A DNA stretch of 64,000 bases from contig CAKVHT010000002.1 in the NCBI GenBank assembly GCA_934754375.1, forward strand, positions 11,257 to 75,256. The letters are read 5' to 3'. This stretch comes from an uncultured Clostridia bacterium (GTDB taxonomy: Bacteria; Bacillota; Clostridia; Christensenellales; UBA1242). Within the stretch, counting starts at the first letter, position 1, and each line of letters begins with the position of its first letter. Under the pieces are notes generated by a model. That model searched no databases, was not told the DNA's origin, and saw nothing but the letters and a program-made list of their open reading frames with translations. Positions 4,668 to 63,515 of this stretch are shown one piece after another. A program made the position numbers and the translations under genes.

Positions 4668-7600
4668 TTATTGAATTGTGATTGAGCCACCTTCTCCATT
4701 TCTAGATTTCATAACAACTGTAACAGCTTCACTGAATTTTGTTGAGTATCCGCCATTTTGTTGCAATAGATAGAATGTTTCTCCAGTATTAAATAATTTT
4801 TCACTGTAAAACGAGAATTTTTGAGTCTCTATTAATGGATTAGAAATCAATGCGTCAACCATATCAATAAACGCATTTGAATTACCAAATGTTATGCCTG
4901 AAATTTTTCCAAACAATCCAGAATCAAACATATATCTAGTATAGAATTTTATATCACCACTTATATTACAATATTTGTTATCGTTTATTTGATGATTTTC
5001 ATCTTTAACTGTCAAGATAACTTCATGAATAGTTTCAACATCACAACCTTCTTCGGCAGATAGAGTATATTTGCTGTCAATCCTATACATCACATATTTT
5101 GTTGCATTGATTTTGCCTTCGTCGTTAAATCCTTTTGTATAGGTTCCATTAATATATTCATTGCCGCCTTTTACGTTTATGTCTATTTTAATATACCCGA
5201 TAGAATCCACCTTCAATCTGTAATAGTCACAAAAATTATATCCGTCATACTCTAGTTTCTTAAATTCGTCAATAGACATACCTTTAATTGTAGATTTGTA
5301 ATTTATATCCCCTGTCGATGTATTTACATCATAGATGTCAGCTAAAGTCATTTTAGTACCATTGTCAAATTCTATTTGATAATCTACCAAACCATCAGAG
5401 AAATAGAAAGTCTCTGTTTTTACATCAGGTATCTTCCATTTCTTGTTACCATTGGTTGTCTTACTCCTATAGTTTGAGGCATATATTTCTTGATTGAAAA
5501 CGGTCATAACTTTATTATCTGATGTCAACTCGTAACCACCTTCCCAAAGATAGTATGACACCTGATATTTTACAACACCTGGATGATTTGCATCTGTTTG
5601 ATACTCATAAGTTTCATTATCTTTTGCATTGCCTGTGAACATTGAACTATAAGGATTTTTGAAACTATAAGGGTAAATATCCATATCTATGTAACGTTTA
5701 TCGCTATAAGCGGAATTCACATCATCTAACCCATTTTGGTCATCTGCTATATAAGAAATTTCATAACACGCTTCTGGAATTTCTGTTATAGATTGTCTAT
5801 ACCTTGTTTGGTATTCAGTTGGCAAGATAATATAATTGTCACCATCGTAATAATAATTACCTGCATTGTTTTGAGTGTAAGTTCCGTCAGGATTTTGAAC
5901 ATATCTAGTTTGATAAATCAAATCCAAAACATAATACCCAGATCCGTTTTTATAGTAGTTTGCTGTTTGATCCTCAATGTACTCGACTTTTTCAAATGTC
6001 CTGATAACATAATCGACATTTATTGTTTTGCCAGTGGAGTCATAATTTTCATTATACACAAATCTAGCACGTTTACTTGGCATTTTGTTATTACCTGCGA
6101 CTGCATAATAAGCCCCTTCAAAATAATCATAACCCAAAATCAATTTTGATTTCTTTTCTGAAGATAAAGTTGATTTGCTGTAAGACAATGTTTCAGTAAC
6201 CACAGGAGCAATTGAAGAAGCATTATTTGTCAACTCTACACGATTGAGACTATATATACCATTTGAGTATTCAACTTTGTTGCCGTCATCTCTATTTGTT
6301 GCAAAACTATATGTTCCTGTTGATGGATTGTATTCGCCATAAACATAAGCATAGTTGTTGAATGTTACATAAGGCATTTCTACACCTAAATTATTCGCAT
6401 AATATGAAGATTCAATCATATTTGCCTGAATTTCAGTTGTTGTTGCTGTGAAACTATGTTTCCAATAATAACCTTCGCTATAAACACAAGTTCTTAAGAT
6501 ATCAGTTGAACTTATGTTGCTATCAGCTCCCCACTTGTCTTTTAATGTTTGAATTATTGTATCCTGTGAGGTGTCCATACTAAAGAATTCTACCGCGCCA
6601 TTAGTTTTATTGATAACCATCCAATAATTTGAGTAATAATCCAAAGGCCTTGAACTTGAATACAAATGATATGGTTGTCCATCAATAACCTTTACTTTGT
6701 CAGCAACCGCTTTTGTTTCGTTATCCTTATCCAAACTGATGTCTCGATAATACATGTTAGATAGGTATCCGACTTCACCCTCAAGGTTTTGGACAATTGT
6801 GCCTGTATTGTAATAGGTCATCATTTGTTCTTTTGCAATAACATTAACACCATAACCTATTGCGAATGTGATTAAAAGTTTCTTTATTACTGTTGTTTTA
6901 AGAAGATTTTTCAAAGCACCTTTCAAGAAAGCTTTTGCAAATTCTTTTGCCCCCATTTTTGCCCCAATTTTTGCTGTAGCTGCTAGTCCAGCGCCCGCAA
7001 CACCAGTAGTACCACCAGAAACAATAGAACCAAGCAACCCTATTACCATAGCAGCATCTGCTGCAACAAGAAGACTTTGCCAAATTGCAAGTTTTATTCG
7101 TGCAGCCTCATCTTGTTTTGTTGCCAAAATACCCTTATAGTCACTGCTTCCGAAACCATTAACCTCAAATATTGAACCAGATTCAGCCTGCTTAGACTCC
7201 TGATATTTAACTTTATACTCGAAATAAATTTCGTCATACAATTTTTTGGAACCATATTTTGGGTTCTCTTGATCTGTTATGCTTTCATCAAGATAATAGA
7301 AATTTTTAATTGTAATATAAGACTCATTATATCCCTGTTTAAATTTAGTATCCGGTTTCACAATATTGCCATTCTCATTATGGAAGATTTGTCCCCAACC
7401 AAATTTGGTATAGATTGTTGGAACATTTTCATAATCTTCATAAATAGTGTACAGAATTTGACCTTTTTCGTCCTTTGTATAGCCAGAGCCTTCTTCTGTT
7501 ACAGATTTAACAGCATTAATCTTGCTTGCGTCATAAATTGATGCAATAGAATCCCATTCTGCACCATTATTCTTTTCCATTGGAATAAATCTTTGCATTG

Positions 7601-30731: not shown

Positions 30732-33107
30732 TTATCTATACAATGCCTGATAGTTTGCAAGCACTGCTGTTGGCCAACCTGCAGTTGTCAATTCTGCACT
30801 TGAAATAAGCATACCAGTTGTGTCTTCAATTGTGCTTGCTGAAATAACTGTGTCAGTTGCTGTGACTGAAACTGGAATAATTTGACCTGGACGAATAAGC
30901 CCTGCGAAATATGAATATCCAGCATTTGTGAAGAAATAACCATTGCTATCTGTAACTGTGCCATTGAAGCGCAAATAATATGACTTTGTTGTTGAATTGT
31001 TGATAAAATATGCCTCACCTGTTGTTTCATTCACAAATTGAACATCTGCGACACTGCTTTCAACCGTGCCTGTTAATGTGTAGTTACTGAAATCGTAAAT
31101 TTGTGCTGATGTAACAGTCATTGTGCCCATCAAAACTTTTTCACCCGGATTGATTTGGCTTGAAATTGTTTTGGTTGTTGGGTTTGCGGCAGTTTGCCAG
31201 CCCGCAAATATGTAATATTTTGTGCTTGAACTCCATGCTGAATTTGTGTTTTGAACATAGTTTGAGCCATTATAGATGTAATATTTCCAATAGTTTCTAT
31301 CCCAATTTGCTGGGGCTGTTGTTTGATTGTTACCTGAAAATTCAGTCATGCCCAATTGGGTGCTATAATAATTATAACTAACCGACAAGCTTAAACCAGA
31401 AAGAACGTTTGTGGAAAGATTTTTTGCATACAATTTTGCTGTTGTACCTGAAATTTCAGTTTCCAAAACCAATTGGCTATCATCAGCGGTTGAAGTTGTG
31501 GCTGTGATTGTTGGCACAAGTTCAATCCAAACGTCACTGCCTGCATAGGCTGAATTTGCAGCGACAATATCAGCCAAAAGACCATTGGCAATTTGGAACC
31601 TTGTGCAGATTGTCATTGCTGAATATGGTGCAATGATTTGACCGCTGTTTTTGCTTCCGCCTGTAGGTATTGTAACCCTTGTGGTTGACGTGAACACATC
31701 ACGAGCCCAGTGTGTTGAATTAGCAAAGTCATAAATTTTCCCGTATTCCGCTGTTGCATTACCATTGCTGATATAAACTTTGATTGCATAACTAGCACTC
31801 ACTGAAAGTTTGTTTGCAGTGTTGTTTACCACACGAATTTGTGTTTTGAATGTTTCAGCACCTGTTGCTGTTGATTGATACAATGCAGCATCGTATTTTG
31901 AAGTGTTTATAACTGAATAACTGCTTGTTGGCATTGTTGCTGTGATTGAACTATCTGTGATTGTTGTGATTGTTGCTGTACCGATGCCATTTCTTGTTGT
32001 GATATTGCCCAATTCGTTGAGATTGACAATTGTTTCAATATGGAAGTTTGAATAATCTGCATTTGAATAATAACCACGTGTTACAACTTCAACCGAATCC
32101 AAAATATCCACATACACCGCGGTGTGTGCTGGAATAATGTAACTATAAGTCCTTATCTCTTGCACTTGGGTGTTATCGCTTGGATATGTTTCATTTGTCC
32201 AGTTGTCAGCAAAGTCATATTTGATTGTGTTGTTTACAACATGGACGTCACTTGGCGAAGTCGAACCTGAGTCAGCAACCCAGTTGCCAACTGCACGAGC
32301 TTTGATTTTTACTGTGCTTGCACCTGTTATAATATAAGCACCAACGCCAACATAATTTTTGTTGCCAAATATCTTTTTGATTGCTGTTGTTGTTGCCTCG
32401 CTGTTGCCTTGTTCAAGATTGGTTACACTGCCAGATCTGAATGCTGTTTTACCCTCTGGCGCTTTTGGTTTATAACTGCCTTTATCTGTTTGATTGTACA
32501 TCACAACAAAAGCATCCGTGCCTGTGTAACTGCTTGCTTTTCTAGCTTGATATTCCGCATAAGCTGAACCCGCTGTGCCAGATTGGTCAAGAGTTTCACT
32601 TTCTTTTACAATTTTAACATTTGTGATATTGATTTTTAACGATTTGTTGTTATAAGTTTCATCATAACAATCAACAAAGTTAACACCAACAATGATTGGC
32701 AGTTTACCTGTGCCTTTTTGAACTGTATCACGATAATATATCCTGCCGTTATCCACAATCCAAGCATTTCTATTTGAAAAGTTCAATATTACATTAGAGC
32801 TATCTAAACCGCCTGTCCATTCAAGACTATATTCAACATAAAATTTAAAGTTGTAATCATAAGAATATTGTAAAGCAATTTCATATTCTTTTGCACCATC
32901 GCCGAATGGTATGCCGTTTGGCAAACTATCATTGACAATTTGATAACTTTGATTTGGCAAATACATTCCTGTTGCGTAGCCTGAATTGTGGCTTTTGCTC
33001 CAACTAAATGCCGCATAAACGACACTGGTTGTAAATGCAAAAACTGCGCCCAATAAGACGCATAGTATTTTTATTAGATTGCCTTGTTTTTTCTTTTTTG
33101 CAATCAT
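30732..33107 (-). CDS. Large secreted protein (791 aa): SipW-class signal peptide, TasA-like N-terminal module, ~600-aa Thr/Ser/Asn-rich extension
   Basis: Signal MIAKKKKQGNLIKILCVLLGAVFAFTTSVVYA|AFSWS. SD AGGGGG. Sits 39 nt downstream of sipW. Confidence 0.8.
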   Translation of the reverse strand: MIAKKKKQGNLIKILCVLLGAVFAFTTSVVYAAFSWSKSHNSGYATGMYLPNQSYQIVNDSLPNGIPFGDGAKEYEIALQYSYDYNFKFYVEYSLEWTGGLDSSNVILNFSNRNAWIVDNGRIYYRDTVQKGTGKLPIIVGVNFVDCYDETYNNKSLKINITNVKIVKESETLDQSGTAGSAYAEYQARKASSYTGTDAFVVMYNQTDKGSYKPKAPEGKTAFRSGSVTNLEQGNSEATTTAIKKIFGNKNYVGVGAYIITGASTVKIKARAVGNWVADSGSTSPSDVHVVNNTIKYDFADNWTNETYPSDNTQVQEIRTYSYIIPAHTAVYVDILDSVEVVTRGYYSNADYSNFHIETIVNLNELGNITTRNGIGTATITTITDSSITATMPTSSYSVINTSKYDAALYQSTATGAETFKTQIRVVNNTANKLSVSASYAIKVYISNGNATAEYGKIYDFANSTHWARDVFTSTTRVTIPTGGSKNSGQIIAPYSAMTICTRFQIANGLLADIVAANSAYAGSDVWIELVPTITATTSTADDSQLVLETEISGTTAKLYAKNLSTNVLSGLSLSVSYNYYSTQLGMTEFSGNNQTTAPANWDRNYWKYYIYNGSNYVQNTNSAWSSSTKYYIFAGWQTAANPTTKTISSQINPGEKVLMGTMTVTSAQIYDFSNYTLTGTVESSVADVQFVNETTGEAYFINNSTTKSYYLRFNGTVTDSNGYFFTNAGYSYFAGLIRPGQIIPVSVTATDTVISASTIEDTTGMLISSAELTTAGWPTAVLANYQALYR

Positions 33108-33146: not shown

Positions 33147-33764
33147 TTAATATACCAGCCTTTTTGCATTGCGCATTTCAATTTCGTTTTGCGCAACATA
33201 AGTGAAGCACCACAAACCTAAAATGATTGTGATAAACAACATTTTATGTTCGGCTATAAAATCCACATAACTGCCATAATTTGCAATGTTGGTTACAACT
33301 TTGCCTTCTATTTGATTTGCTGATACATATTGATACAATGCTGATGCTTCTGTCCTGACTTGTCCCAAAGACTTATCTTTAATTGCGTCAGCTTCTTGTT
33401 GCCATGTCCAGCCATCTTCTGCTGAACCATATTGGAAACCTACATTGTCGCCATGACAGATATACACATCATCTTTGATTGCAATAAGGCGGTGAACTGT
33501 TGGCAAGTTACCTGAACCAGTTTGGTCAAATTTAAGCACATCGCCAACTTTATACTCTTTTGCAGAGTGCACAACCACCATGTCCCCAACTTTGATTTCT
33601 GGCTCCATACTGCCAGTTAAAACTTTGTATGGCCTAAAGTGAAAGGCATATACAAATATAAGGCAAATTGCCAAAATAATCACAATACCAATTGCAAGAT
33701 TATATATAAGTTGTTTTGTAAATTTAAATGCTTTATTTTCTAAAATCTGATCGTTGTAATTCAT
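33147..33764 (-). CDS. sipW: Signal peptidase I, SipW (ER/archaeal) type
   Basis: 205 aa. N-terminal TM, Ser box TGSMEPEIKVGD, His box PTVHRLIA (a Ser/His rather than Ser/Lys enzyme), HGDN, and an extra C-terminal TM MLFITIILGLWCFTYVA as in SipW. Its SD overlaps the stop of the 3,012-aa gene. Confidence 0.88.
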   Translation of the reverse strand: MNYNDQILENKAFKFTKQLIYNLAIGIVIILAICLIFVYAFHFRPYKVLTGSMEPEIKVGDMVVVHSAKEYKVGDVLKFDQTGSGNLPTVHRLIAIKDDVYICHGDNVGFQYGSAEDGWTWQQEADAIKDKSLGQVRTEASALYQYVSANQIEGKVVTNIANYGSYVDFIAEHKMLFITIILGLWCFTYVAQNEIEMRNAKRLVY

Positions 33765-33772
33765 ATTTCCCC

Positions 33773-36700
33773 TTAATCAATTTGTGTACAACCAGTTGGA
33801 TTGTAATTATTTTGGCTTGATCCGCCATAAATACCCATCAATTCAACAGATTTATAATCTGAACTGAATTGTGTTTTGTTTGTGAATGTTTGATTGATTT
33901 TGCAATTTGATATGCTTGCCATCGTGCCATTGTTTGATGTAACATACCCTGTCACAAAACCGATATATAATTTGTTGCTGTTTGAAATTGACAAATTGAA
34001 TTGCAATTTGATTGTGCAATCATCAATTGAGCCACCTTGCATTTGTCCAACCAATCCACCAAGATTTGTTGTTTCAAGTGCTGTGTGATTGAATGCACCC
34101 AGCACTGTGCAACCAGTGATATTTACATTGATTGCATCGCCAACCAAACCACCAAAGTTATCTGCGTAGATATTTGTTGTTTGGCTGATTGTTGATGTTG
34201 CATTGCTGATTTCTGCAGTTGTTGAGCCGTTGTTTGCCATATAACCAGCCACACCACCAATTGCTTTAAACCTGCGATTTGTGTTGCTTTGTGTTACTGA
34301 CAATGACACACTTGTTGCCCTTGACACACTGCTTGCAACTTTGACACCTTTTGCATAAGCGGAGATGCCACCAACATATACACTGCCTGAAGTTGAAACG
34401 AAATCTGCTTGTACTTCAACATTAAGATTAACTATACAACCTTCAAAAGTTGTATTGACAGCTTCGCCAACCAAACCTGCAATATAGGCATTGCTTAACA
34501 ACGCATAATTGCCAGCAAGTTGAATTGTTGCATTGACAACACTAATATTTGACAATGTTGCATTGGTTGAATCCATTGCTATCAATGATGATTTTAACAC
34601 ATTTGTCTGTCTTTGTGCAAATGTATTGACGAATTTTGTTGGATTATTGTCAGTTTCCGCAATATTTAAGTTTTTAATTGTTGCATTTTCAAGTTGTCTA
34701 AACAACGAGATACCTGCAAAGTTAGAAACTTGACTATTTGAGACATCAACATTTGTCATGCCAAACAATGAGAAATCTTTACCATCAAGCACACCAGTAA
34801 ATTTGTTTGCAATGATTGCACCATTTGCGTTGATTTGTTTTGCCATATCAACTGATGACATATTAATGGCTTGTACAAGTTCAAAATGTTTATTTGGTTT
34901 TAATGTAATGTTAAGCAATTGACTTGCATTTGCTATGCCATAAGGTGTGGTTTCACTGCCGTCACCTGATGCAAAATAATTGAAGTCAATGTCTGCGTAA
35001 GGTGTCGCAACTGATGTTAAACTATCTTTACGAACCACACTTACTGATAATTGTGTATATTTACCAGCTGTTGTCAACGGATAAACATAATAGATTTTTC
35101 CTTCAATCTCTTGCATATAGTTTGTGTCGCCATTGTTGATTTCAACAACTTCCACAGTTGAATCTCCCAAACTGCTACCTGCACCATTGAAGGTGTATTT
35201 TGCAATGTTATAAGAAATCCTTAACTTATCGTTTGTTTTGAAGTCTTCGGCAATTGGGATATACAAACTTAAATTTGTTTCATCAAATCTAATTTCGCCA
35301 ACCGGTTGAGGACGTTCATTTGAACCTGTGAAAACATAAACCCCGCCATTGAACACCTTGCCAGTGTCAACACCAACTGCTTGAATTTTGATGGTGTAAC
35401 TGCCTGTCAATTGTTCTGGTGCAACACATTTTAATTCTTGAGTTGCCAAAACAGTTTGTTCACTTGTTGATTCTGCCCCTGAACTGTCTGTCCACTCAAA
35501 TGTCACTTTATAACCTTGAGCATTTTCAACTGCTTGCCAGCTTATATAGTCATCTTTTTCTGTCGCACCTGTAACTGTTGCAAGTTTTGTAAAGCCTGTA
35601 GCACTATTAGATTGCATTGATGATATATAGTCTGCGCCAACAGCTTTTATCACAATTGAATAACTGCCAGTTTCAAGCAAATTGCCATAATTATCTGCTG
35701 TAATTGTAAAATCAATTTGAGGATTAACTGTTGTAAACGTGTAGGTTTTTGCACCTGTCAACACAACAATATATTGATTGATGTGTGCTTGGTCTAAATG
35801 CTCCCAAACAAGCACACCGTTATTGGAAACAATAACATCAGGTGAAACCTTGCTAAGCCTTACCATATCTTGAGCATCAGTATAATTGCTGTTCAAAATT
35901 TCAATGTCGTTTGTGCTATCATATTTGCCAAGTGTCAACAATTTGATTGTGTAATTGCCCGCATTGATTTTGCTTTTGCCAATGCCGTCAATACATGTAT
36001 ATTCGTTGTCACTGATTTCGTAGTAATAATACTCTGCACCATCAAACTCTTTTTTAAGAGTTCTATCTTTGGTAATGGTTTCTTCAATAACTCTGCCATC
36101 TTCAAATTCTATTCTAATGACTGTGCCGTTGTAATTTGCTTCGTCCTTAACTCGCCATACAATCACACCTTGTTTTATGCCAACATAATCAAGGCCTTTT
36201 GATTTTTCAATATTTGTAACTTTATCTTCATCATTGGTTTTCACAAAGGTTGCATTCAAAATGCCTGTATCTTTTTCTTCTGTTTGAATGGCACGCACTT
36301 TGATACCAAATTTTTTGCCGTTAATCAAACTGATTTTTTCTATAACATTTTGTTCGCCATCAACACGAGTTGCTTCAACAGTTTCAGGCAAAACATAAGT
36401 TAAAACATTGTTTGATATTGACACACCTTCACTGTATTGATTGATTTTAAAATTATATTCACTTGTTGAACCTGCATTGTTAAGGTCTTTAACGACAAAT
36501 TCATAATCAGTGATGTAAGTTTTAATTTTATCGTTAAGCACATAAGCAAGGTCAAATTGCAGTTTGCCTGAATTTACTTGCAAGTATGTGTTTGATAAAC
36601 GTTTAAACGGATAACTTGTGCTAGGCACACGTGCATTTAACAAATATCTTGAATCAAGATTTTCAGTTCCAACACCAGCAAGAGTTCGAATTTTTATCGA

Positions 36701-47678: not shown

Positions 47679-49397
47679 TTATTTTGATTGAGATTCATAT
47701 ATCTCACGATAGATATCACAATTTTTCATTAGTTCATTATGTTTACCCATACCAACAACATCGCCGTTATCAAGCACAATAATCAAATCACATGACTTAA
47801 TTGATGTTGCACGTTGAGAAATCAAAACCGTAGTTGTGTTAAGCCCTTTAATAGCCTTGCGTAACTTACTGTCGGTTAAAAAGTCAAGCGCACTGCTACT
47901 ATCATCCAATATCAGCATTTCGGGTTTACCTATAAGTGCTCTTGCAATAGTCAATCTCTGCATTTGACCGCCACTTACATTTTTACCACCAGCCATGATT
48001 TGATAATCAAGGATGTTTCTCCATTCACTCACAAACGGCCATGCCTGAGCAATTTTAAGAGCCTCTATGATTTCTTCATCAGTTGCGTTATTGTCACGAA
48101 TTTGCATGTTTTGGCGCAAACTTCCACTGAACAAAGTACTCCTTTGTTGCACAATGCTGATATCTTTACGCAATTGTTCAATAGTAAAATCTTTGATATT
48201 TTTGCCTTTGAACAAAATTTGACCAGATGTCACGTCATAAAAACGTGTCATCAAACTTGCAATAGTTGATTTGCCACTGCCTGTACCACCGATAATGCCT
48301 ATCGTTTGATGAGGATAAATTTTAAACGACAAATTTTTGATAAATGATTGAGTTTGATTGTCTAAATTATAGTTAAATGACACATTGTCAAACTCCATCA
48401 AAGCATCATACTCAAGTTTTTTGTATGCTTTTGCATTAGGTTCATTTTTTATAACTGGGACTGTGTCCAAAACCTCTTGAATTCTGTGCCAACTTGCAAC
48501 TGTCCTTACAAATAAAATGATACCTTGTGAAATTACCAATAATGAAATTGTAATGGTTGAAACATAATCTATAAGAGCAATCACATTACCTTGTGTTAAC
48601 GTCCCAACATTTATTTGATAGCCACCAACAAGCAAAATAACTATAGTTGCAACATCAACTACCAAGAATATAACCGGATTGAGAAGAGCGGCAATTTTTG
48701 AAATTTTTAAACTTGTGTCGGTATAGTCCTGACTGACGGATTTAAAACGTTCTGTTTCGTTTTCCTGTTTGTTGAATGCACGTATAACACGTGTGCCGTC
48801 CAAATTTTCTTTCGTTACTTGACTTATTTTATCCAATTTTTTTCTAACAATATTAAAATATGGCACTGTCTTTTTTGTAAATATCCACAAAATCAACAAC
48901 ACGATAGGTATCAAAACCAAGAAAACCAAAGACATCTTTTTGTCAATGCTTAAACTTAATGCAAAAGCACCTATCAAAAGCGCCGGAACACGAATAATCA
49001 ATCTCATGAACATACTGACAGCATCTTCAACTTGATCCACATCGTCTGTCATACGGTTAATCAAACTTGCCGTTCCAAATTTATCAAGTTCATGATGCGA
49101 AAATGTTGAAACATGTTCAAACACCCCAGCACGCAATTCTTTTGCCACACCAGAACTTGTTAAACTTACAAACTTTTGACTTATAGCACTTAAACCAAAC
49201 GCAATAACATTTATCACAAGCAAAATCAGCCCAACTTTTAAAATGTAATTTACGTTCCCTGTTGTTATACCAACGTCAACAATCTTTGCAACTAAAAGTG
49301 GATTAAGCAATTCAAAAATCGCTTCAATCAATTTCATGATTGAACCAAATATTGCTTTCCATTTATACTTTTTAAAATATGCAAGGAATTTTTTCAT
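47679..49397 (-). CDS. ABC exporter, fused permease/ATPase subunit (heterodimer partner 1)
   Basis: 572 aa. TM half, Walker A GGTGSGKST, signature VSGGQMQRL, Walker B LILDDSSS. Ends 12 nt upstream of its partner gene. Confidence 0.9.
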   Translation of the reverse strand: MKKFLAYFKKYKWKAIFGSIMKLIEAIFELLNPLLVAKIVDVGITTGNVNYILKVGLILLVINVIAFGLSAISQKFVSLTSSGVAKELRAGVFEHVSTFSHHELDKFGTASLINRMTDDVDQVEDAVSMFMRLIIRVPALLIGAFALSLSIDKKMSLVFLVLIPIVLLILWIFTKKTVPYFNIVRKKLDKISQVTKENLDGTRVIRAFNKQENETERFKSVSQDYTDTSLKISKIAALLNPVIFLVVDVATIVILLVGGYQINVGTLTQGNVIALIDYVSTITISLLVISQGIILFVRTVASWHRIQEVLDTVPVIKNEPNAKAYKKLEYDALMEFDNVSFNYNLDNQTQSFIKNLSFKIYPHQTIGIIGGTGSGKSTIASLMTRFYDVTSGQILFKGKNIKDFTIEQLRKDISIVQQRSTLFSGSLRQNMQIRDNNATDEEIIEALKIAQAWPFVSEWRNILDYQIMAGGKNVSGGQMQRLTIARALIGKPEMLILDDSSSALDFLTDSKLRKAIKGLNTTTVLISQRATSIKSCDLIIVLDNGDVVGMGKHNELMKNCDIYREIYESQSK

Positions 49398-49731: not shown

Positions 49732-51258
49732 TTATTTAATAATGGTCTTACCTTTTATCCAACTGTCAAAAAACGACTGCATATCATTGCCTGTTGTTTT
49801 AGTAAAAGCCTCTATCAATTCATCAGCGGTGACATTTTTAAACTTGTTTGTTTGATAATAATTTTGCAAAGATTTTATAAACTTTTTCTCCCCAACAAGA
49901 GAATACAAACTTTCATACATCAGCACACCTTTAACATAAGTGCAGTAGGTATATTCCGGCTCAGTGTTATATTTATCAACCGCTCTCATACTGGTATCAA
50001 TACTGCCCAAAACATCTTCATAAACTGTTATAAACAATGTGTAATTCTCTTTGTTTGCTTTAACAATTTTTTGATGTGTCAGGTTATAATCTTCATTATA
50101 ATCGTAGAATAATGCTGTAGAAAATTCCGTCAAAGCCTCATCAAGCCAAGGCAGGGTGTATTCGTCATTTCCAACCAAAACATACCACCACTGATGTGCT
50201 GTTTCATGTACAATGACATTCAGATAATCGTCCAAAGAATCAATATCATCGCTTATCATCACAAGGTTTGGATATTCCATACCCCCTTGCAAAAAATCAC
50301 ACTTGACAACCGAGAATGTTGTGTAAGGATATTGTCCAAATTTTTGAGAGAATGTTTTTATAGCATCAACTGCCGTTTTAACTGCCAAATCCGCATTACC
50401 GTCATTATAAAAATAATAGTTAACTTCCACATTGTTTGCTTGTGCGGTTTTAACCTCAAATTTTTCACTTATAACACAAGCAAAATCTCTTACAACTTTG
50501 GCTTTAAACTGTGTTGTTGTTTTGCCCGACTTTTGACTAAATTCATGTTGTTCGCCTGTTCCTGCAACAGTAAGCATACTATCCAATGTTAAATTTACAT
50601 TGTAGTTTGCCATGTCGCTGTAAAATGGGTCGCCATTCGCATTATAAGGATTTGTAACAAAGCCTCCGTTTTCATACACGCAAGCAATTGGATAAAAATT
50701 TGCAAGATTTATTGTATCATCGCCATAACCAAAGCGATGTTCACAATTTGGCAATTTTATGTAATATTCTAAGTACACGTCAACACGTTCAGTTGGCATC
50801 AAAGAATTTGTCAAATCAACATTCAAAATGTTGTTATAATCACCTTCTAGAACAACAGCAATCTCGGTATCTGCAAGTTTAAGTTTTGTTATTTCAAATT
50901 CACAGTAGCTCATGCCGTGCCTATAACAATTATTCATTTTTGTTTGGCTTACGATTTTGTCTGTCGCCCCTTGTTTAAAAAATTGTGGATATAAATGAAA
51001 TTTGATTTGCTTCAGCACTGTATCAGTATTGTTGACATAATTTACTTTTTGTTTTGCGGTTAAAGATTTTGTTGAGTTATCAAATTCAATTGAAATGTCA
51101 TAATTTGATAAGCCCGTGCTTATTTTTGACAAATCATCTGTTTTCTTACCACAAGCAGAAAACGAAACGAGAGCAAAACACAAAAACAAAACAGCAATGA
51201 AGCCCGACCAACACCTTTTATCTTTGCAATGAGAATTTTTGACATTTAAATTTTTCAT
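49732..51258 (-). CDS. M1-family zinc metallopeptidase, lipoprotein
   Basis: HETAHQWW followed 18 residues later by E (WLDEALTEF), i.e. HExxH-x18-E. Signal FIAVLFLCFALVSFSAC|GKK (lipobox). Confidence 0.85.
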   Translation of the reverse strand: MKNLNVKNSHCKDKRCWSGFIAVLFLCFALVSFSACGKKTDDLSKISTGLSNYDISIEFDNSTKSLTAKQKVNYVNNTDTVLKQIKFHLYPQFFKQGATDKIVSQTKMNNCYRHGMSYCEFEITKLKLADTEIAVVLEGDYNNILNVDLTNSLMPTERVDVYLEYYIKLPNCEHRFGYGDDTINLANFYPIACVYENGGFVTNPYNANGDPFYSDMANYNVNLTLDSMLTVAGTGEQHEFSQKSGKTTTQFKAKVVRDFACVISEKFEVKTAQANNVEVNYYFYNDGNADLAVKTAVDAIKTFSQKFGQYPYTTFSVVKCDFLQGGMEYPNLVMISDDIDSLDDYLNVIVHETAHQWWYVLVGNDEYTLPWLDEALTEFSTALFYDYNEDYNLTHQKIVKANKENYTLFITVYEDVLGSIDTSMRAVDKYNTEPEYTYCTYVKGVLMYESLYSLVGEKKFIKSLQNYYQTNKFKNVTADELIEAFTKTTGNDMQSFFDSWIKGKTIIK

Positions 51259-51349
51259 ATTCTAACTTATGAGCCTGTCCTAAAAAAAAGAACAAGCGGA
51301 AATTTTGACAATTTACACAAAAATTCACTTACACACACAAAAACAAAAG

Positions 51350-51403
51350 TTATCCACAATAAAACCCTAAAATTGTGGATAACTGGGGTGAAATTGTGGA
51401 TAA
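51350..51403. promoter_or_regulatory. Cluster of three perfect DnaA boxes (TTATCCACA)
   Basis: TTATCCACA at 51350-51358 on the plus strand. TGTGGATAA at 51374-51382 and 51395-51403, each inside the direct repeat AAATTGTGGATAACT with a 21-bp period. Confidence 0.8.
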
Positions 51404-51426
51404 CTCCCTTTGTTTTGACAAAAATA

Positions 51427-51437
51427 TGTGTTAAAAT
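51427..51437 (+). promoter_or_regulatory. TRTG-extended -10 element of the dnaB/D-like operon
   Basis: TGTG-T-TAAAAT ends 6 nt before the ATG at 51444. No SD is present. A TTGACA at 51415-51420 sits only 11 nt upstream. Confidence 0.45.
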
Positions 51438-51443
51438 AGCAAT

Positions 51444-52880
51444 ATGAGTTTTTGTAAATTTAGTCCTGGTTACGTTTCAAACAATAAAACAATAATAGAT
51501 AACACGTTTATAAACGAATATTTGCCAAAAGCACCAGACCTTTGCGTTAAAGCCTATATTTTAGGTTTGAGCAAATGCTCTTCTGCTGACGACAATGATA
51601 ATTCGCTTGAATTTTTTTCAAACACACTCAAAGTATGCGAAGATGATGTAATATCCCTTTTTAAATATTGGGAGGAAATGGGGCTTGTTCAAGTGCTTTC
51701 AACCAATCCGGTTGAAGTGAGATATCTTCCTATTATTTCAAATGCTGGAAGTGTGAAGAGATATAAAGTTGATAAATATGCCGACTTTAATATTCAATTG
51801 CAGGAATGTTTTAGCGAACGCATGCTTACACCAAATGAAATGACCGAATTTTATGACCTTATGGAACACAAACACATTGCTCAACCAGCACTTATAGATA
51901 TTGTAAAATACTGCACTGAAAATAAAGGGTTTGGCATCAGCCCAAACTATTGCTTAACCGTTGCAAAAGACTGGATTCATCAAGGAATATTATCACAAGC
52001 ACAAGTTCAAGCAAAAATTGAAGAATTAGGCATTGTTGATGACCAAATGGGGTTGATTTTGTCTGCCATGGGAAGCAAACGCAAAATTCAAATTGAAGAC
52101 AAGGAATTGTTAAACAAATGGCTAAAATCATTCGGTTTTGAACTTAACACAATTATTTATGTGGTCAAAACATTGAAGAACAAAAAACGCAGACTCGATG
52201 TAAATGTTTTAGATGAATATTTAACCAAATATTTCGAAATGAGATTAACCTCTATCCCAGAAATTGAAAATTATGAAAATGACAAAGAAAACCTTTTAAA
52301 TCTTGCCATTGCCATAAACAAAGAATTGGGCATCTACTACGAAGATGTTACAAAGGAAATTGATTTATATGTGGTTGGTTGGCTCAACATGGGCTTTGAC
52401 CAACAAATGCTTTTAACCGTTGCTGACAACTGCTTTAAATCATCAATCCGCACATTGGAAGGATACAACAACATTTTGCTTAAACTTTTCCGTTTGGGTA
52501 TAGTAAACCTTATATCCTACAATCAATATTTAAACGACAATTTGGCTCAAGACCAAAAAGTGAAAGAAGTTTTAACACATCTCAATCTTGCAAGGAACGT
52601 GAACAATGCAGATAGAAGTTTCTATTCAGTTTGGACAAATGATTGGGGTTTTGGGCATGATATTGTGTTATATGGTGCAGATTTATCTGCTGGCAAAACA
52701 AATGCTTTGCAATATTTAAACAAAATCCTTTCAAACTGGAATACCGCAGGCTTAAAAACACTTGAAAAAGTTAAACTTACAAAAATCGAAGACAATGACA
52801 AGGCTGACTTTATACATAACAATTATACAAAAGAACAAATTGCAAGTTTTATAACCAACCTTGATGAAGTGGAGGTGTAA
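51444..52880 (+). CDS. DnaB/DnaD-family replication initiation and membrane-attachment protein (Firmicute DnaB type, not the helicase)
   Basis: 478 aa, similar in size to B. subtilis DnaB. N-terminal IIDNTFINEYLPKAPDLCVKAYILGL is DnaD-family-like. Directly followed by dnaI, as in the dnaB-dnaI operon. Confidence 0.75.
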   Translation: MSFCKFSPGYVSNNKTIIDNTFINEYLPKAPDLCVKAYILGLSKCSSADDNDNSLEFFSNTLKVCEDDVISLFKYWEEMGLVQVLSTNPVEVRYLPIISNAGSVKRYKVDKYADFNIQLQECFSERMLTPNEMTEFYDLMEHKHIAQPALIDIVKYCTENKGFGISPNYCLTVAKDWIHQGILSQAQVQAKIEELGIVDDQMGLILSAMGSKRKIQIEDKELLNKWLKSFGFELNTIIYVVKTLKNKKRRLDVNVLDEYLTKYFEMRLTSIPEIENYENDKENLLNLAIAINKELGIYYEDVTKEIDLYVVGWLNMGFDQQMLLTVADNCFKSSIRTLEGYNNILLKLFRLGIVNLISYNQYLNDNLAQDQKVKEVLTHLNLARNVNNADRSFYSVWTNDWGFGHDIVLYGADLSAGKTNALQYLNKILSNWNTAGLKTLEKVKLTKIEDNDKADFIHNNYTKEQIASFITNLDEVEV

Positions 52881-52881
52881 G

Positions 52882-53790
52882 ATGAATAAGCGCAAAATTA
52901 TTGACGATGTTAAGCAACAATTTATGTTGAAAAGAATCAAAGCACAAGAAAAAGCCGATGACTACATTATGTCATTGCGCCAAAACCCTGAATTTGACAA
53001 ACTCTACTCCACTTACGCAAAAACCAAACTTGAATATTTAAAAAGCAAATATGAGCAAGAAAATTTAACTTTAAAATATGACTTGCAAGAATTAAAAGGC
53101 AAAATCAATCAGTACTTAAAACTGCATGATGTAAATCCTGCTGATTTGTTGCCTCAATACGATTGCCCAATTTGCAATGACACTGGTGTGGTTGGTGGTA
53201 GGATTTGCAATTGCCTGCAACAAGCATTAAACAAAAAATTATCAATGCAAGTGAGCAGTCAAAACCAATTTAAATCTTTTGAAAATTGCGATTTGAATAT
53301 AATGAGCACAGATGATAAAAAAACCTGTCAAATTTTAAAAGCATGGTGTGACAAGTTTCCAAATGTAAGCAAAATTAACATCTGCTTAATAGGTGGCGCT
53401 GGTTCTGGCAAGACTTTTATGCTTGAATGTGTTGCAACTGAAATGTTAAAACATAACCAAGTTGTTTGTTTTAAAACGGCATTCGAACTCAATGAACTTG
53501 CAAGATTATATCACATTGGCAAATCATACGATTTTGCCGATTGTTTAAATGCCGACATTCTTTTGATTGATGACCTTGGCACTGAACCAATTTTAAAAAA
53601 TGTCACAAAAGAATATTTGTACAACATAATTAACACACGTCAAGTCAACAATCTTCCAACTTTCATCTCAACCAATTTAAGTCAAGAACAATTACTTGAC
53701 CGTTATGACGAAAGGATTTATAGCCGTCTTGCAAATAAAAACTTAAGTTTAAACATTCAACTCACAAGCTCAGACAAACGCATTAAATAG
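52882..53790 (+). CDS. dnaI: Helicase loader DnaI (DnaC/IstB-like AAA+)
   Basis: ATG at 52882 after GGAGGTG. Zn motif CPICNDTGVVGGRICNC, Walker A GGAGSGKTF, Walker B LLIDDLG. The track start at 52861 (TTG) was rejected. Confidence 0.85.
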   Translation: MNKRKIIDDVKQQFMLKRIKAQEKADDYIMSLRQNPEFDKLYSTYAKTKLEYLKSKYEQENLTLKYDLQELKGKINQYLKLHDVNPADLLPQYDCPICNDTGVVGGRICNCLQQALNKKLSMQVSSQNQFKSFENCDLNIMSTDDKKTCQILKAWCDKFPNVSKINICLIGGAGSGKTFMLECVATEMLKHNQVVCFKTAFELNELARLYHIGKSYDFADCLNADILLIDDLGTEPILKNVTKEYLYNIINTRQVNNLPTFISTNLSQEQLLDRYDERIYSRLANKNLSLNIQLTSSDKRIK

Positions 53791-55314: not shown

Positions 55315-55398
55315 TACTATTTAAAAAAATTTTGTGGATTTGTTGTCAATATTAATTTGTTAAATCGAAAAATATTTTTACTGATAACTAGTCGTTTT

Positions 55399-57690
55399 TT
55401 AACTTTTAAGATATGTCCTAGCAACCAAAACTGTCATGTCGTCTTTTGCTGAATTTTTATTTAGCCTCAAGGCCTCGTTTAAAATTGTCTCTGCCAGGAC
55501 TTGTGGATTGGTGCTAACTAATTTTGAAACAAAATCTTTTAAATTTTCAGCCGTTTCAAAAGCATCTGTTATTCCGTCAGTTGCCAAAATTACAATATCC
55601 TTTGTTGAGATGGTTGTTTTGTATATTGTCGGATTAATATTATCAAGTGCACCTATTGGCAATGCTCCACCTTCAACAAACTCAAGCCCGTCATTGTGTT
55701 TTATCAAACCAAACGGCGCACCAACTTTGATAAAGTCAGCCAATTGATTTTCCAAATCCAAAAGGCACACATCAAGCGTGGAATAGTTTTCTTGATTGTT
55801 TATCGCCAACAACTTATTAACACTTTCAAGGATAATCTCATTATCAAAACCAACTTTATAAAAGTTTTCTATCAAACTCAAAGTCATCGCACTCATTTGA
55901 TGTGCTGAACTGCCTGCGCCCATACCATCGCAAAGTGCCAATAAAAACTTATCTTTTGCCAAACGGATAATACTATGGCAATCCCCAGATTCCGTGTTGC
56001 CCGCTTTGCAACAGTTTGCCAACCCAAAAGCACAATCATATTTGCTTTGCCTTTGCAATGTGACCGCATTAAATCCAGATTCTTCCATTGGCTTTATATT
56101 AGAAATTTGCATAGGCATTTTTAAAACTTCAGTTAAGGTTTTTTGCATCAAATCTAAATCTTTTTCTGTGTTTTTAACAATCAAAAGTGCTTTCATGTCT
56201 TGATTTTTTTCAGTGTAGAGCAACACTTCTTTACATTCAACATTATGGTTTAACAGTTTAGTGATAATTTTATTCTCTCGTGCAATATCAAAACTAACAT
56301 TTGTGTCAATTTCATCGCCAATATCAAGCAATAACTGTGACACAGCTCCCATTTGGTCTGCCAACAAATATTTAACATTGTTTACATCTGCAACCATGCC
56401 TTTATATTGCCTATACTCGTCCGCAAGTCTATTGACAAGCGAAATAAGATTATTGATTTTTCCACATCTGTTTGTCAATCCTGCAGGAATATCAAGCAAA
56501 CTCACTTTGCCTTTTTTCAATGCAACTTCAATAATTGTTTGCAAATTGCTGATGTTGTCCGTTCCGAGTGAACGTGTGCAACGATTTTTATCCAAGCAAT
56601 CTTTGCAACAAGTTGAAACCAATTCACGTGTAAGCATGGCTACCAATTCTGCATGTGTTAAATCTTTTTTTATCATGTTTAAATGAATTTGTTTCATCTC
56701 TAAAAACACATTGCTCAATTCACTCATGCGTTTATGAATGTTTTTGCGTGTAGTGTTGATAAGGTTTCTGCTTGTTAATTCACTCTTTTTAACATAAATT
56801 ATATCTGCCAAACTGTTTAATCCTTTGCTTGGTATTATTAAAAACACAAACACGGCACTGAAAATTGGCAACAAATTATACAAGGTGTTCCAATCCATTC
56901 CAATAAAATACAATTCTATAAATGTTGCTCCCAAAACACTTGCAAATGCAATTTTAAATTTGTTTGGCGCACTAAACATACTGGCGAGCATACTTATAAT
57001 TGCAAATTCAGCAACCGGCAACAAACTGGCTGTAAAAATAGAAACACCTAATCCAAAAGACAAAGTCAACGCAAAAGTTAGCACTGGACTTCCAACGCAG
57101 ACAGAAACAAAGATTGTTAGCATCAAAACAAGTTTGTACAATTCAAAACCATAAACATTAACTGGTGCAACTCCTAACCCCAAAATCGCAATTGCAAACA
57201 AAAAGCAAATAGATTCGTCCAGTGTTAATTTAAAGCAGTTTCGCCTTAAAATCATCACTTGACACACAACAATAAAAACCCATAAGGCAATAAAACCCAG
57301 CACTAAATAAACTGCAAGGTTTACAATATTTGAGAAGTTATAATATATGTAAGTGGCAAGTGAAAGCAAATATACACAAAATATTGTGGCAAGTTTAATT
57401 TTCCTTTTGATTAACCTGTGAATGTAATAATTCACCAAACACACAGCCACAACTGTTATAGACGTCAAAAATGATTGCAAACTGAAATCCACTATCACAC
57501 TTGATGCCAAGCAAAACACTGACATCAGTTTTTCATCTGCACCAACAAAAACTGATGCAAATAAAAATGCAAATAAAAATGGACTGATATCATTAACTGA
57601 CGCATTTGCAAAAACAAGGCAAGCAAAAAATAAAGCAAGATAACCAATAAATTTATTGTAACTGAATTTTTTAACTTCAACATTTTCCAT
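55399..57690 (-). CDS. spoIIE: Stage II sporulation protein E (polytopic membrane PP2C phosphatase)
   Basis: 763 aa. About 10 N-terminal TM segments and a C-terminal PPM/PP2C domain (GDCHSII..LCDGMGAGSSA..TLDVCLLDL..ILATDGITDAF). Confidence 0.85.
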   Translation of the reverse strand: MENVEVKKFSYNKFIGYLALFFACLVFANASVNDISPFLFAFLFASVFVGADEKLMSVFCLASSVIVDFSLQSFLTSITVVAVCLVNYYIHRLIKRKIKLATIFCVYLLSLATYIYYNFSNIVNLAVYLVLGFIALWVFIVVCQVMILRRNCFKLTLDESICFLFAIAILGLGVAPVNVYGFELYKLVLMLTIFVSVCVGSPVLTFALTLSFGLGVSIFTASLLPVAEFAIISMLASMFSAPNKFKIAFASVLGATFIELYFIGMDWNTLYNLLPIFSAVFVFLIIPSKGLNSLADIIYVKKSELTSRNLINTTRKNIHKRMSELSNVFLEMKQIHLNMIKKDLTHAELVAMLTRELVSTCCKDCLDKNRCTRSLGTDNISNLQTIIEVALKKGKVSLLDIPAGLTNRCGKINNLISLVNRLADEYRQYKGMVADVNNVKYLLADQMGAVSQLLLDIGDEIDTNVSFDIARENKIITKLLNHNVECKEVLLYTEKNQDMKALLIVKNTEKDLDLMQKTLTEVLKMPMQISNIKPMEESGFNAVTLQRQSKYDCAFGLANCCKAGNTESGDCHSIIRLAKDKFLLALCDGMGAGSSAHQMSAMTLSLIENFYKVGFDNEIILESVNKLLAINNQENYSTLDVCLLDLENQLADFIKVGAPFGLIKHNDGLEFVEGGALPIGALDNINPTIYKTTISTKDIVILATDGITDAFETAENLKDFVSKLVSTNPQVLAETILNEALRLNKNSAKDDMTVLVARTYLKS

Positions 57691-60212: not shown

Positions 60213-60944
60213 TTATTTTGCACAAGCAGTAAATTTAAGTTCTTCATCCACATAGCCAGATACAAGCATTTCATCTTCAACTTTTTCAACATAAAGTTTT
60301 ATTTTATCACCCAACTTGCATTCTGAAATGTAGTTTAATTGAAGATGAGATAAATCATCAGTTTTCAATGCGTTAAACACATAAGTTGCATAATGGACAT
60401 TGTTTAAATGTTTGTTGTGGTCAATTTCATTAAACTCAACTACATGCTCGTAATCAGCATCTTGTTTTTGCTGTATGCTTGGGGTTTTTGCAAATTTTTC
60501 TTGATAATTAATTTCAGTTTCATACTCCAAATCTTTTGGGTATTCAACCGCAGTTGGCAAAACAAATTTGCGTGTTTCAGTCGATATAACACACCATTTG
60601 CTTGTGCCTTTTATCAAAACATTGCCAGACATATCTGTTATTAAATAATCACGGTCAAAATCAACTCTGCCTTTTATGTGAGGCCAAGTTTTAAGCACTA
60701 CTTGTTGGTATGGTTTTGGTTGAACAATTACATCATATTTTGTACGAATCAAAACCCAATACAAACCTTTGCTTAACATTTTTTCAAATCCAACACCTAT
60801 CAACTCGCCATGAATGCTGGCAATATCTTGAAACAACCCCATGATTGCAGTTGGTGAAAGGCGGTCATTCAAATCAAATTGACTTGGAAGCAGTTTGACA
60901 ATTTCGCTATAACTTAATTTTTTATTTTTGTTTTCTTCTATCAT
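60213..60944 (-). CDS. Acyl-ACP thioesterase
   Basis: 243 aa double hot-dog pattern: GLFQDIASIHGE, LYWVLIRTKYDV, WPH..GRVDFDRDYLI, and a second half HVVEFNEIDHNKHLNNVHY. Confidence 0.82.
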   Translation of the reverse strand: MIEENKNKKLSYSEIVKLLPSQFDLNDRLSPTAIMGLFQDIASIHGELIGVGFEKMLSKGLYWVLIRTKYDVIVQPKPYQQVVLKTWPHIKGRVDFDRDYLITDMSGNVLIKGTSKWCVISTETRKFVLPTAVEYPKDLEYETEINYQEKFAKTPSIQQKQDADYEHVVEFNEIDHNKHLNNVHYATYVFNALKTDDLSHLQLNYISECKLGDKIKLYVEKVEDEMLVSGYVDEELKFTACAK

Positions 60945-61822: not shown

Positions 61823-62710
61823 TTATTGCTTGTCGCTATTGATAATTTCAACCAATTTTATCAAAGCGGGATTTGCTTGATCAACATTTGTCAAACAAAC
61901 TATTTCACGGGCACAAATTGAAAAGTTTGGAAAAATAACAAAAACTTCTCCACTTTCAACTGCTTGTTTATAATATTCTTTGTTCACAAAAGCCATGCCA
62001 AAGCCTTTTTTCACAAACTCATAAAGCAATATGTAGTTATCCAATTCATACTTTGGCAAAAGTTGTATATTGTGTTTTGCAAAAAAATTTTCAATTGTGA
62101 TGCGTGAATTATTATTCACACTTGGCAACATCAAATCGTCAACTGGAAATGAAGATAAATCAATGTCATCACCAGCAAATTTTTGCTTATATTGCAGATT
62201 GCCAATCAATTGATAGTTTACATTGAATTGTTTGATTAAATTGAATTGGTCAATTTTTTCAGTTTTATCAATAAATATCATATCCAAATTATTATCTTTC
62301 AATTGTTCAATCAGTTGTTCCTTACTGCCACGGTGCATAACAATTTGAATATTTGGATATTTGCTTGCAAATTCAGCCAAATAATTTAACACCACTTGAT
62401 TAACATTTGATGTGCAAGCACCAATACGGACAATGCCTTCTTCCAGTTTACCAAACCTTTTTGCCAAAATTTCAGCTTGTTCAAATTTATCAACACTATC
62501 TTTTATTGTTTGATATAACATTTTGCCAAAGGTGGTAAGTTCAACCCCTTTGCTTTTTCTAATAAACAATTGTTGACCTAATTCTTGCTCCAATTCCCTG
62601 ATTGAAAAAGAAACAGCTGGTTGTGAAACATATAGTTTTTCACTTGCTTTTGAGATGTTTTTTTCTTCTGCAACAGTGCAAAAGAATTTGTAAAGATTAT
62701 AGTTTGTCAT
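61823..62710 (-). CDS. LysR-family transcriptional regulator
   Basis: N-terminal wHTH FFCTVAEEKNISKASEKLYVSQPAVSFSIRELEQELGQQLF plus a substrate-binding-type C-terminal domain. 295 aa. Confidence 0.9.
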   Translation of the reverse strand: MTNYNLYKFFCTVAEEKNISKASEKLYVSQPAVSFSIRELEQELGQQLFIRKSKGVELTTFGKMLYQTIKDSVDKFEQAEILAKRFGKLEEGIVRIGACTSNVNQVVLNYLAEFASKYPNIQIVMHRGSKEQLIEQLKDNNLDMIFIDKTEKIDQFNLIKQFNVNYQLIGNLQYKQKFAGDDIDLSSFPVDDLMLPSVNNNSRITIENFFAKHNIQLLPKYELDNYILLYEFVKKGFGMAFVNKEYYKQAVESGEVFVIFPNFSICAREIVCLTNVDQANPALIKLVEIINSDKQ

Positions 62711-62804: not shown

Positions 62805-63296
62805 TTAATCAATCAAACAACTTACATGGCATACATGAACATTTGGCAACATTTTAATGGTGGCACGCATAACACCATGGTCATCTTCAAACATAAAAAT
62901 CTCACTTTTGCTGTCTATAAAAGATTTAATACGGTTAGGTTTTAGGTTATCTTTGGTTTTTGGTGTATATGATTCATTATTCAAAACAATAATGTTTATA
63001 TCTTCTGGTTTTATAAAGCTTGCATGTTGTTTTAGCCAACTGATTTTGTCTGCCCGTTGTTCATCAAAATAGCAATTTGACAAAATCTTTACAGTTACGT
63101 TTTTTGTTTTTGATAATTTTTTCATCTTTTTCAAAATAGAATACAATGGACGTTTGTTGATGAAAAAATCTGGTTCATTTGCTAAAAGTTTTGGCCTTTC
63201 ATTTACGCCATATTCCACACACGTTCCGTCCATATCAAAAAAGCAAATCACCTTTTTATCTTTTGCCAAATTCATTATATCTTTTATAACGTTCAT
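62805..63296 (-). CDS. HAD-superfamily phosphatase (5'-nucleotidase-like)
   Basis: DxDxT motif FFDMDGTCVEY. ATG at 63296 after AGGGG. The track TTG start at 63311 was rejected. Confidence 0.65.
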   Translation of the reverse strand: MNVIKDIMNLAKDKKVICFFDMDGTCVEYGVNERPKLLANEPDFFINKRPLYSILKKMKKLSKTKNVTVKILSNCYFDEQRADKISWLKQHASFIKPEDINIIVLNNESYTPKTKDNLKPNRIKSFIDSKSEIFMFEDDHGVMRATIKMLPNVHVCHVSCLID

Positions 63297-63515
63297 ATTT
63301 ACCCCTAACAAATTCTAATATTATAATAGCACATGGGGGCAGGTTTTCAAACCAAAATTGAAATTATTAAATCAGAAAACAATTTTAACAGACTTGTTTT
63401 GTTGTTTATATAATCACATTTTATTTCAGTGATTTTACTTCTGCAAAATTTAAGTGAACTAAAAACATAAAAAAATGAACCACAACATCAAACGTTGCAA
63501 TTCACTTTTAAATTT

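Follow-up and report, generated by a model that had tools for sequence, protein, structure and literature searches.

Does the replication initiator DnaA directly control the genes for the proteins that follow it in helicase loading? The question is raised by a 64-kb stretch of DNA (hereafter the window) from Candidatus Onthoplasma, an uncultured genus of the Christensenellales, with a nearest genome that is 98% identical at the protein level. In the window, a cluster of DnaA boxes stands immediately upstream of a chromosomal pair of genes, here called the loader operon, that consists of a DnaD-family gene and a DnaI-like helicase-loader gene and is conserved across orthologs. We consider it probable, with moderate confidence, that this four-box array is a genuine high-affinity DnaA cluster that would make transcription of the presumably leaderless operon responsive to DnaA.

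A four-box DnaA array upstream of the loader operon

A preliminary description of the window had reported three perfect DnaA boxes upstream of the operon, at 51350, 51374 and 51395, together with a direct repeat at a spacing of 21 bp. Both observations were reproduced exactly: the three boxes are identical to TTATCCACA, and the repeat is a perfect one of 15 nt, AAATTGTGGATAACT, whose copies start 21 bp apart at 51370 and 51391. The same description counted three members in the cluster and missed a fourth (51329-51337), which was revealed by alignment with six sister species. This box, box 0, starts 21 bp upstream of box 1 and reads TTAC(A/G)CACA in six of the seven clade members, with seven of its nine columns invariant. 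The resulting array spans 75 bp (51329-51403) in the layout → → ← ←, with start-to-start spacings of 21, 24 and 21 bp, and its last member, box 3, adjoins the −35 position of the loader promoter (Table 1).

Perfect boxes number four in the window against 1.04 expected, and a first-order Markov model (analytic estimate) predicts 2.9e-7 triples spanning at most 54 bp for every 64 kb and 1.3e-5 for every 3 Mb. Apart from a 7/9 look-alike near 55330, no further box had been seen in the window before; the look-alike is indeed there (TGTGGATTT), but so is an isolated perfect TTATCCACA at 32749-32757 (+), inside a Pfam-less open reading frame (ORF) at 30732-33107 (−), which corresponds to the chance level of about one per 64 kb.

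Table 1. Positions, in the window, of the boxes, promoter elements and genes discussed in the text.
Feature	Position	Strand	Remarks
Box 0, TTACACACA	51329..51337	+	8/9 match to TTATNCACA; centre −111 from the predicted transcription start site
Box 1, perfect TTATCCACA	51350..51358	+	centre −90; 9/9 columns invariant in the clade
Box 2, perfect TTATCCACA	51374..51382	−	centre −66; within first 15-nt repeat copy (51370-51384); 8/9 columns invariant
Box 3, perfect TTATCCACA	51395..51403	−	centre −45; within second repeat copy (51391-51405); 8/9 columns invariant
Weak −35 region	51409..51415	+	TTTGTT with a 17-nt spacer or TTGTTT with a 16-nt spacer
TTGACA	51415..51420	+	11 nt from the −10 hexamer
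Extended −10, TGTG-T-TAAAAT (TGTGTTAAAAT)	51427..51437	+	10/11 columns invariant in the clade; hexamer TAAAAT at 51432-51437
DnaD/DnaB-family gene	51444..52880	+	478 aa; two DnaB_2/DDBH2 stretches (Pfam DnaB_2)
In-ORF site, F-I-H-N codons	52810..52818	+	degenerate here, TTATACATA
DnaI/DnaC-like AAA+ helicase-loader gene	52882..53790	+	302 aa; best solved relatives are DnaI
Divergent M1-family peptidase gene	49732..51258	−	shares the 185-bp intergenic region; ATG 71 bp from box 0

DnaA binding was predicted by the B. subtilis criterion, the A value, in which the summed affinity of four successive boxes (each within one mismatch of TTATNCACA) is divided by their mean spacing. In B. subtilis, A exceeds 0.3 at each of the eight stable in vivo DnaA sites and at no other (Ishikawa 2007; PMC2533591), and the oriC cluster at rpmH-dnaA of that species has A = 0.94 (PMC2533591). 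For the cluster at 51329-51403 we obtained A = 13/14 = 0.93, the next best region in the window reaching 0.10. The DnaA of this organism would be expected to recognise TTATCCACA, because DnaA domain IV is conserved in Firmicutes including Clostridia (PMC7561715).

Since DnaA-box clusters define origins, and since pairs of DnaD-like and DnaC-like genes are common in phage modules (PHROG families were matched here via shared domains), we considered whether the locus is itself a replication origin, be it oriC, a secondary origin or the origin of a phage or plasmid replication module. This explanation is scarcely credible. The 64-kb window has no dnaA, dnaN, rpmH or gyrB, the GC skew is negative throughout with no switch, and no DnaA-trio or AT-rich unwinding element lies beside the boxes; oriC and a secondary origin were rejected on these grounds. 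The order of peptidase, DnaD-like and loader genes recurs in 44-45 of 47 species, even where protein identity falls to 35%, tilS and spoIIE flank the operon downstream, and no integrase is present, so that a prophage or plasmid module was likewise rejected.

Conservation within clades and turnover between them

In the seven-sequence clade alignment (the window and six sister species), 2 of the 27 box columns vary against 21 of the 39 spacer columns (Fisher p = 7.5e-5); judged by this alignment, the 9-mers themselves are under purifying selection relative to the spacers. Because three perfect boxes lie together far beyond chance, the A value exceeds the B. subtilis threshold and the 9-mers appear selected, we read the cluster as genuine, and a non-random, selectively maintained array of high-affinity-type DnaA boxes is thus supported in silico.

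A wider set comprised 47 species-representative loci from the Ca. Onthoplasma group (Christensenellales). Across it, the density of perfect boxes is 24-fold higher in the 250 bp preceding the ortholog than over the remainder of the same loci; at least two boxes lie within 130 bp upstream in 21 of the 47 species, the others having none, and A exceeds 0.3 at the locus in nine. On a neighbour-joining tree of the DnaD-like proteins, clusters occur in at least two clades and in a 48%-identity outgroup, L036. Box number, orientation and spacing vary by clade while the 9-mer persists, as in an architecture with a tandem pair of + boxes separated by 2 bp and a single − box. Box variants at these loci are TTATGCACA, ATATCCACA and TTGTCCACA, the last of which is the actinobacterial consensus box. 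Position 5 of the consensus TTATNCACA is known to be free (PMC7561715, PMC2533591).

Several points weigh against DnaA control of the operon. The conservation in relatives on which the preliminary description had made its proposal depend is strong inside individual clades, yet about half of the congeneric species lack the boxes, with box-free clades interleaved among the others; two box-free species (L009 and L032) are nested inside a box-bearing clade; and five of the six distant orthologs have no boxes, L036 being the only one that does. Over the 47 species, then, the boxes are not conserved across the whole genus or family. The box consensus used is that of other Firmicutes, and binding of DnaA to the cluster is predicted here from the sequence of an organism that is known only from metagenome-assembled genomes. 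Because half of the congeners are without a cluster and box-free lineages are nested among the others, DnaA control would therefore seem dispensable or replaceable. The pattern as a whole reads as binding-site turnover, and the same turnover has been described for several B. subtilis clusters (Ishikawa 2007; PMC2533591).

The persistence of the 9-mer also bears on whether the array could be the operator of some other dimeric regulator, its likeness to DnaA boxes being coincidental. Together, boxes 1 and 2 make up an inverted repeat with perfectly matching 13-nt arms, AGTTATCCACAAT-N11-ATTGTGGATAACT (51348-51360 and 51372-51384), and an extended context of 13 to 15 nt, including the 13-mer AGTTATCCACAAT, is common to all three perfect copies, as might be expected of such an operator. 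The core, however, is the exact 9/9 highest-affinity DnaA box three times over, and it is kept while number, orientation and spacing change, which points to one monomer per box and not to a fixed palindromic operator. The substitutions observed (position 5 free; TTGTCCACA) fit the known tolerance of DnaA boxes, and a centre-to-centre distance of 24 bp would be unusual for the operator of a dimeric helix-turn-helix protein. We regard another regulator as very improbable.

A predicted leaderless promoter next to the array

The extended −10 element TGTGTTAAAAT ends 6 nt before ATG 51444, and 36 of the 42 Onthoplasma-group loci have a sequence of the form T(G/A)TGnTAnnnT that ends at exactly this distance from the ATG; none of the 42 has a Shine-Dalgarno sequence (SD) before the DnaD-like start. 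All six distant orthologs (L036, L040, L042-L045), in contrast, carry an AAGGAG-type SD before the same M-x-F-C start, with a −10-like element 17-26 nt upstream of the start in L036, L040, L043 and L044. Because the extended −10 of the window sits 6 nt from the ATG with no SD, unlike in the distant orthologs, the mRNA of the loader operon is very probably leaderless, with its transcription start site (TSS) at the A of ATG 51444.

The preliminary description had combined this −10 element, correctly placed 6 nt from the ATG, with TTGACA as the −35. Both sequences are present, but the second was rejected as a −35: its spacer is only 11 nt, the sister species read atgaca, ttggca, aaggca, aataca and ttagca at this place, and a promoter scan found no canonical promoter on the + strand and none that uses TTGACA. 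The hexamer at the proper −35 position is degenerate in the window's clade (TTTGTT, TTGGCT, TTTGAA, TTGGCG, TTGTCA); it is TTTACA in other box-bearing clades and TAGACA in box-free species (TAGACA-17-TGTGnTAATAT). The −35 is weakest in the clade whose cluster is strongest, and the box-free species have a near-consensus promoter.

Over 11 architectures, the box centres fall at −45, −56 and −66 for minus boxes and at −79/80, −90, −100, −111 and −122 for plus boxes, a lattice of ~10.5-11 bp. The corresponding Rayleigh test (p ~5e-5 at a period of 11, 2e-3 at 10.5) is no more than suggestive of helical phasing and has to be read with caution, as the period was picked after the data had been seen and the positions are related by descent. 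In none of the architectures does a cluster box overlap the core promoter, the nearest match being a lone one with one mismatch, centred at −34 in L018.

These positions are relevant to the alternative that the cluster mainly regulates the divergent M1-family peptidase gene, or both divergent genes. The two genes share the 185-bp intergenic region and the pair is syntenic in 44 of the 47 loci. L016-type loci have an intergenic region of only ~105 bp, in which the first box (TTATGCACA) lies ~8 nt from the peptidase ATG and overlaps the −10 presumed for that gene. In the window itself a promoter-like sequence on the minus strand, TTGTCA-17-CACAAT (51393-51421), overlaps box 3 and points to the peptidase gene, but such matches occur at chance level, with 1 found against 1.7 expected from shuffles. 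Moreover, no box comes closer than 71 bp to the peptidase ATG and no perfect one closer than 92 bp, box 3 lying instead beside the loader −35; the box positions appear to be phased to the loader TSS; and no functional link between DnaA and an M1 peptidase is known. Regulation directed at the peptidase gene is therefore quite improbable in our judgement. An RNA-level role of the array was set aside, because the divergent genes on either side probably both have leaderless starts, so that the region between their start codons is probably untranscribed.

Starts of this kind are seen elsewhere in the window. A TAnnnT element ending 5-8 nt before the start, with no SD, was found for 9 of 28 long ORFs (starts at 43138, 44657 and 51444, and the minus-strand ORFs 47679-49397, 49732-51258, 55399-57690, 60213-60944, 61823-62710 and 62805-63311). 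These nine include spoIIE and the M1 peptidase gene; operon-internal genes carry AAGGAG-type SDs. Leaderless transcription may thus be common for the first genes of operons in this Christensenellales lineage.

A box inside the DnaD-like reading frame

When the conserved residues F-I-H-N near the end of the DnaD-like protein are encoded as TTT ATC CAC AAy, they form a perfect TTATCCACA, 69 nt before the end of the ORF and ~72 nt before the loader ATG. This perfect in-ORF box is found in 13 of 18 species without an upstream cluster (L006, L009, L012, L021, L027-L034 and L041; positions +1357 to +1387 in the DnaD-like ORF). It occurs in none of the 18 that have one (Fisher's exact p = 7e-6, with no phylogenetic correction). 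The codon usage of the same genes predicts the codon combination at a frequency of 9%, giving P ~2e-10 with species treated as independent, or P ~1e-5 if the box is counted as present in 6 of 8 clades, the clades being counted by eye from the tree. The site may be a DnaA box constrained at synonymous positions. Because the in-ORF box and the upstream cluster are complementary, their distribution suggests that DnaA input to the operon is kept more widely than the upstream cluster alone indicates.

Comparison with known DnaA targets

The preliminary description knew of no established control of dnaB-dnaI by DnaA. Such control has in fact been reported, although as a precedent it is weak: Ishikawa 2007 (PMC2533591) cites Goranov 2005 for chromatin immunoprecipitation and expression evidence of negative regulation of B. 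subtilis dnaB by promoter-bound DnaA, and DnaA is described as binding and regulating B. subtilis dnaB, sda, ywlC and yydA (PMC2533591; PMC4447404). The likeness lies in DnaA, whose presence is predicted in our case, at the promoter region of an operon for a DnaB_2-domain co-loader and DnaI (PMC2533591). The operon is on the lagging strand in B. subtilis (PMC9825946), and the loader operon here (51444-53790, +) probably is as well, being oriented against most genes of the window and against its uniformly negative GC skew.

The two cases differ in several ways. B. subtilis dnaB is not among the eight stable in vivo sites (PMC2533591) nor in Smith & Grossman's list of direct targets (PMC4447404), and in the supplements on in vitro binding of the latter authors dnaB is named only as the dnaB(Ts) strain that was the source of genomic DNA. 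At the nrdR-dnaB-dnaI locus of a B. subtilis-group genome (L048; CP024921.1) we found no perfect box and A = 0.03, compared with 0.93 here; one box with one mismatch lies 72 bp upstream of dnaB and a few more lie inside nrdR and dnaB. (In that genome, dnaI is split at 5476-6327 into three gene calls of 116, 66 and 108 aa, probably by frameshift errors in the deposited sequence.) The DnaD-like protein and B. subtilis DnaB have only the DnaB_2 domain in common, with a marginal BLASTP E value of 0.012; the gene order of the two pairs is the same. B. subtilis dnaB follows nrdR with a conventional leader, unlike the gene here, which is predicted to be leaderless and is divergent from a peptidase gene. 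On sequence grounds, the array would be a much stronger instance of the weakly documented DnaA-dnaB link, at a distantly related gene.

With the B. subtilis clusters outside oriC (sda, ywlC, yydA, gcp-ydiF, ywcI-vpr and thdF-jag; Ishikawa 2007, Okumura 2012) the likeness is closer. These also consist of at least four close boxes including TTATCCACA, have A values of 0.36-1.64 as against 0.93 here, are likewise intergenic beside a promoter, and are conserved in some relatives and species-specific in others. None of the six flanks a replication-initiation gene other than dnaA, as the present array does, and only gcp-ydiF matches its three highest-affinity boxes; the symmetric → → ← ← layout with 21-bp spacing sets it further apart. 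At sda, the boxes are upstream of the promoter and not over it, as here, and DnaA binding is required for expression (PMC2533591; PMC4447404). The product of sda is a sporulation checkpoint protein, unlike those of the loader operon, and activation of the latter is proposed by analogy.

Nearer to this lineage, Clostridia have a single DnaD-family protein and a DnaI-like loader in place of the DnaD, DnaB and DnaI trio of Bacilli (PMC7561715), a pattern found in C. difficile (CD3653, DnaD-like; CD3654, loader) as it is here. No DnaA-box regulation of CD3653/CD3654 is described in the literature that we examined, and our literature search returned no report, for Clostridia or for other Firmicutes, of DnaA boxes ahead of genes of the dnaD type.

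The resemblance to the B. subtilis clusters raises the alternative of a pure DnaA-titration site, of the B. subtilis cluster or E. coli datA type, that delays initiation, leaves adjacent promoters essentially unaffected and lies beside the loader operon incidentally. The convergent → → ← ← layout resembles a self-contained DnaA complex, and species-specific clusters are typically labile in evolution. Such clusters are biased towards the vicinity of oriC, and the presence of spoIIE and tilS as neighbours would fit that bias, the two genes being oriC-proximal in B. subtilis. In strength, the array (A = 0.93) is on a par with the B. subtilis clusters that, when deleted together, lead to early initiation (PMC3245932, PMC13220808). 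Titration, however, would not need what is seen at this locus: the boxes of 21 species share one 80-bp slot upstream of the loader −35, in apparent helical register; the strength of the −35 co-varies with the cluster; and the in-ORF box is found where the upstream cluster is missing, which indicates a locus-specific role. We consider pure titration unlikely.

Genes of the locus and other features of the window

The best matches of the loader protein in the PDB are the DnaI proteins of Geobacillus, Streptococcus and B. subtilis. For the DnaD-like protein, solved structures searched by sequence yielded no relative. By comparison of orthologs, the loader gene starts at ATG 52882, one base past the stop codon of the DnaD-like gene. 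A mechanical ORF call had placed the start at TTG 52861 (52861-52884), which is ruled out by the ortholog comparison and by the GGAGG before ATG 52882. This SD (52871-52875) lies inside the upstream ORF, encoded within a conserved C-terminal LDEVEV; its position inside the DnaD-like ORF indicates that the loader gene is translationally coupled to the DnaD-like gene.

In the intergenic region between the peptidase and DnaD-like genes, a motif (A/T)AGAAC(A/T) (~51283-51300 in the window) recurs in nearly all Onthoplasma-group loci (L002-L041). It occurs with or without DnaA boxes and stands between the + and − boxes in L016-type loci.

Elsewhere in the window there are two giant ORFs, at 4668-24704 (−; 6678 aa) and 33773-42811 (−; 3012 aa), separated by a gene for an S26 signal peptidase (33147-33764) and four Pfam-less ORFs. 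Neither the 3012-aa protein nor the N-terminal 3000 aa of the 6678-aa protein has a Pfam match at E <= 1e-5. The two ORFs may encode novel giant surface proteins.

A model of DnaA input and its implications

In the model that we favour, DnaA would bind the array immediately upstream of the loader core promoter, and bound DnaA would change transcription of the operon with the level or activity of DnaA. A cluster of this strength would also titrate DnaA, as the DnaA-box clusters of B. subtilis do, which is compatible with regulation. The preliminary description had offered feedback on the loader genes or titration; the cluster and operon context behind that proposal are supported in silico, and both readings stay viable and compatible with each other.

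As to the sign of regulation, we lean slightly to stimulation of an extended −10 promoter with a poor −35, because the boxes lie strictly upstream and in apparent helical phase and the strongest cluster goes with the weakest −35, an arrangement like that of sda. With stimulation, active DnaA would increase the supply of the proteins that partner it in helicase loading, a feed-forward link. The alternative sign would be repression, as reported for B. subtilis dnaB, and precedent weighs against stimulation: according to Ishikawa 2007 (PMC2533591), the sole direct dnaB-type case is repression and DnaA mostly represses in B. subtilis.

A bolder and rather unlikely version of the model holds that DnaA input is required throughout the Ca. 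Onthoplasma group and is kept by site turnover, either as a phased cluster or as an in-ORF TTATCCACA, with DnaA acting as a face-of-helix activator of the leaderless, −35-poor promoter in the window's clade, so that loader supply would follow initiator activity in a feed-forward manner, and, possibly, with feedback by the DnaD-like product. In B. subtilis, DnaD is brought to sites occupied by DnaA, and it inhibits the cooperative binding of DnaA. Should the DnaD-family product encoded here act likewise, product feedback could close a loop at its own promoter.

No new principle is involved, as DnaA-box clusters and DnaA as a transcription factor are both well established, and the array probably belongs, as an unusually strong member, to a class for which B. 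subtilis offers precedents, that of DnaA-box clusters or DnaA-regulated promoters. If the favoured model is true, the locus would be the clearest example, at the level of sequence, of direct control by the initiator over the genes of its next helicase-loading partners, a link that is weakly supported in B. subtilis, and it would give the first regulatory information on replication initiation in the Christensenellales, an uncultured and common gut lineage. Sister species with strong, weak or no clusters on a conserved promoter that is predicted to be leaderless form a compact natural experiment, and the locus could help to dissect how the number, orientation and helical phase of DnaA boxes affect transcriptional output.

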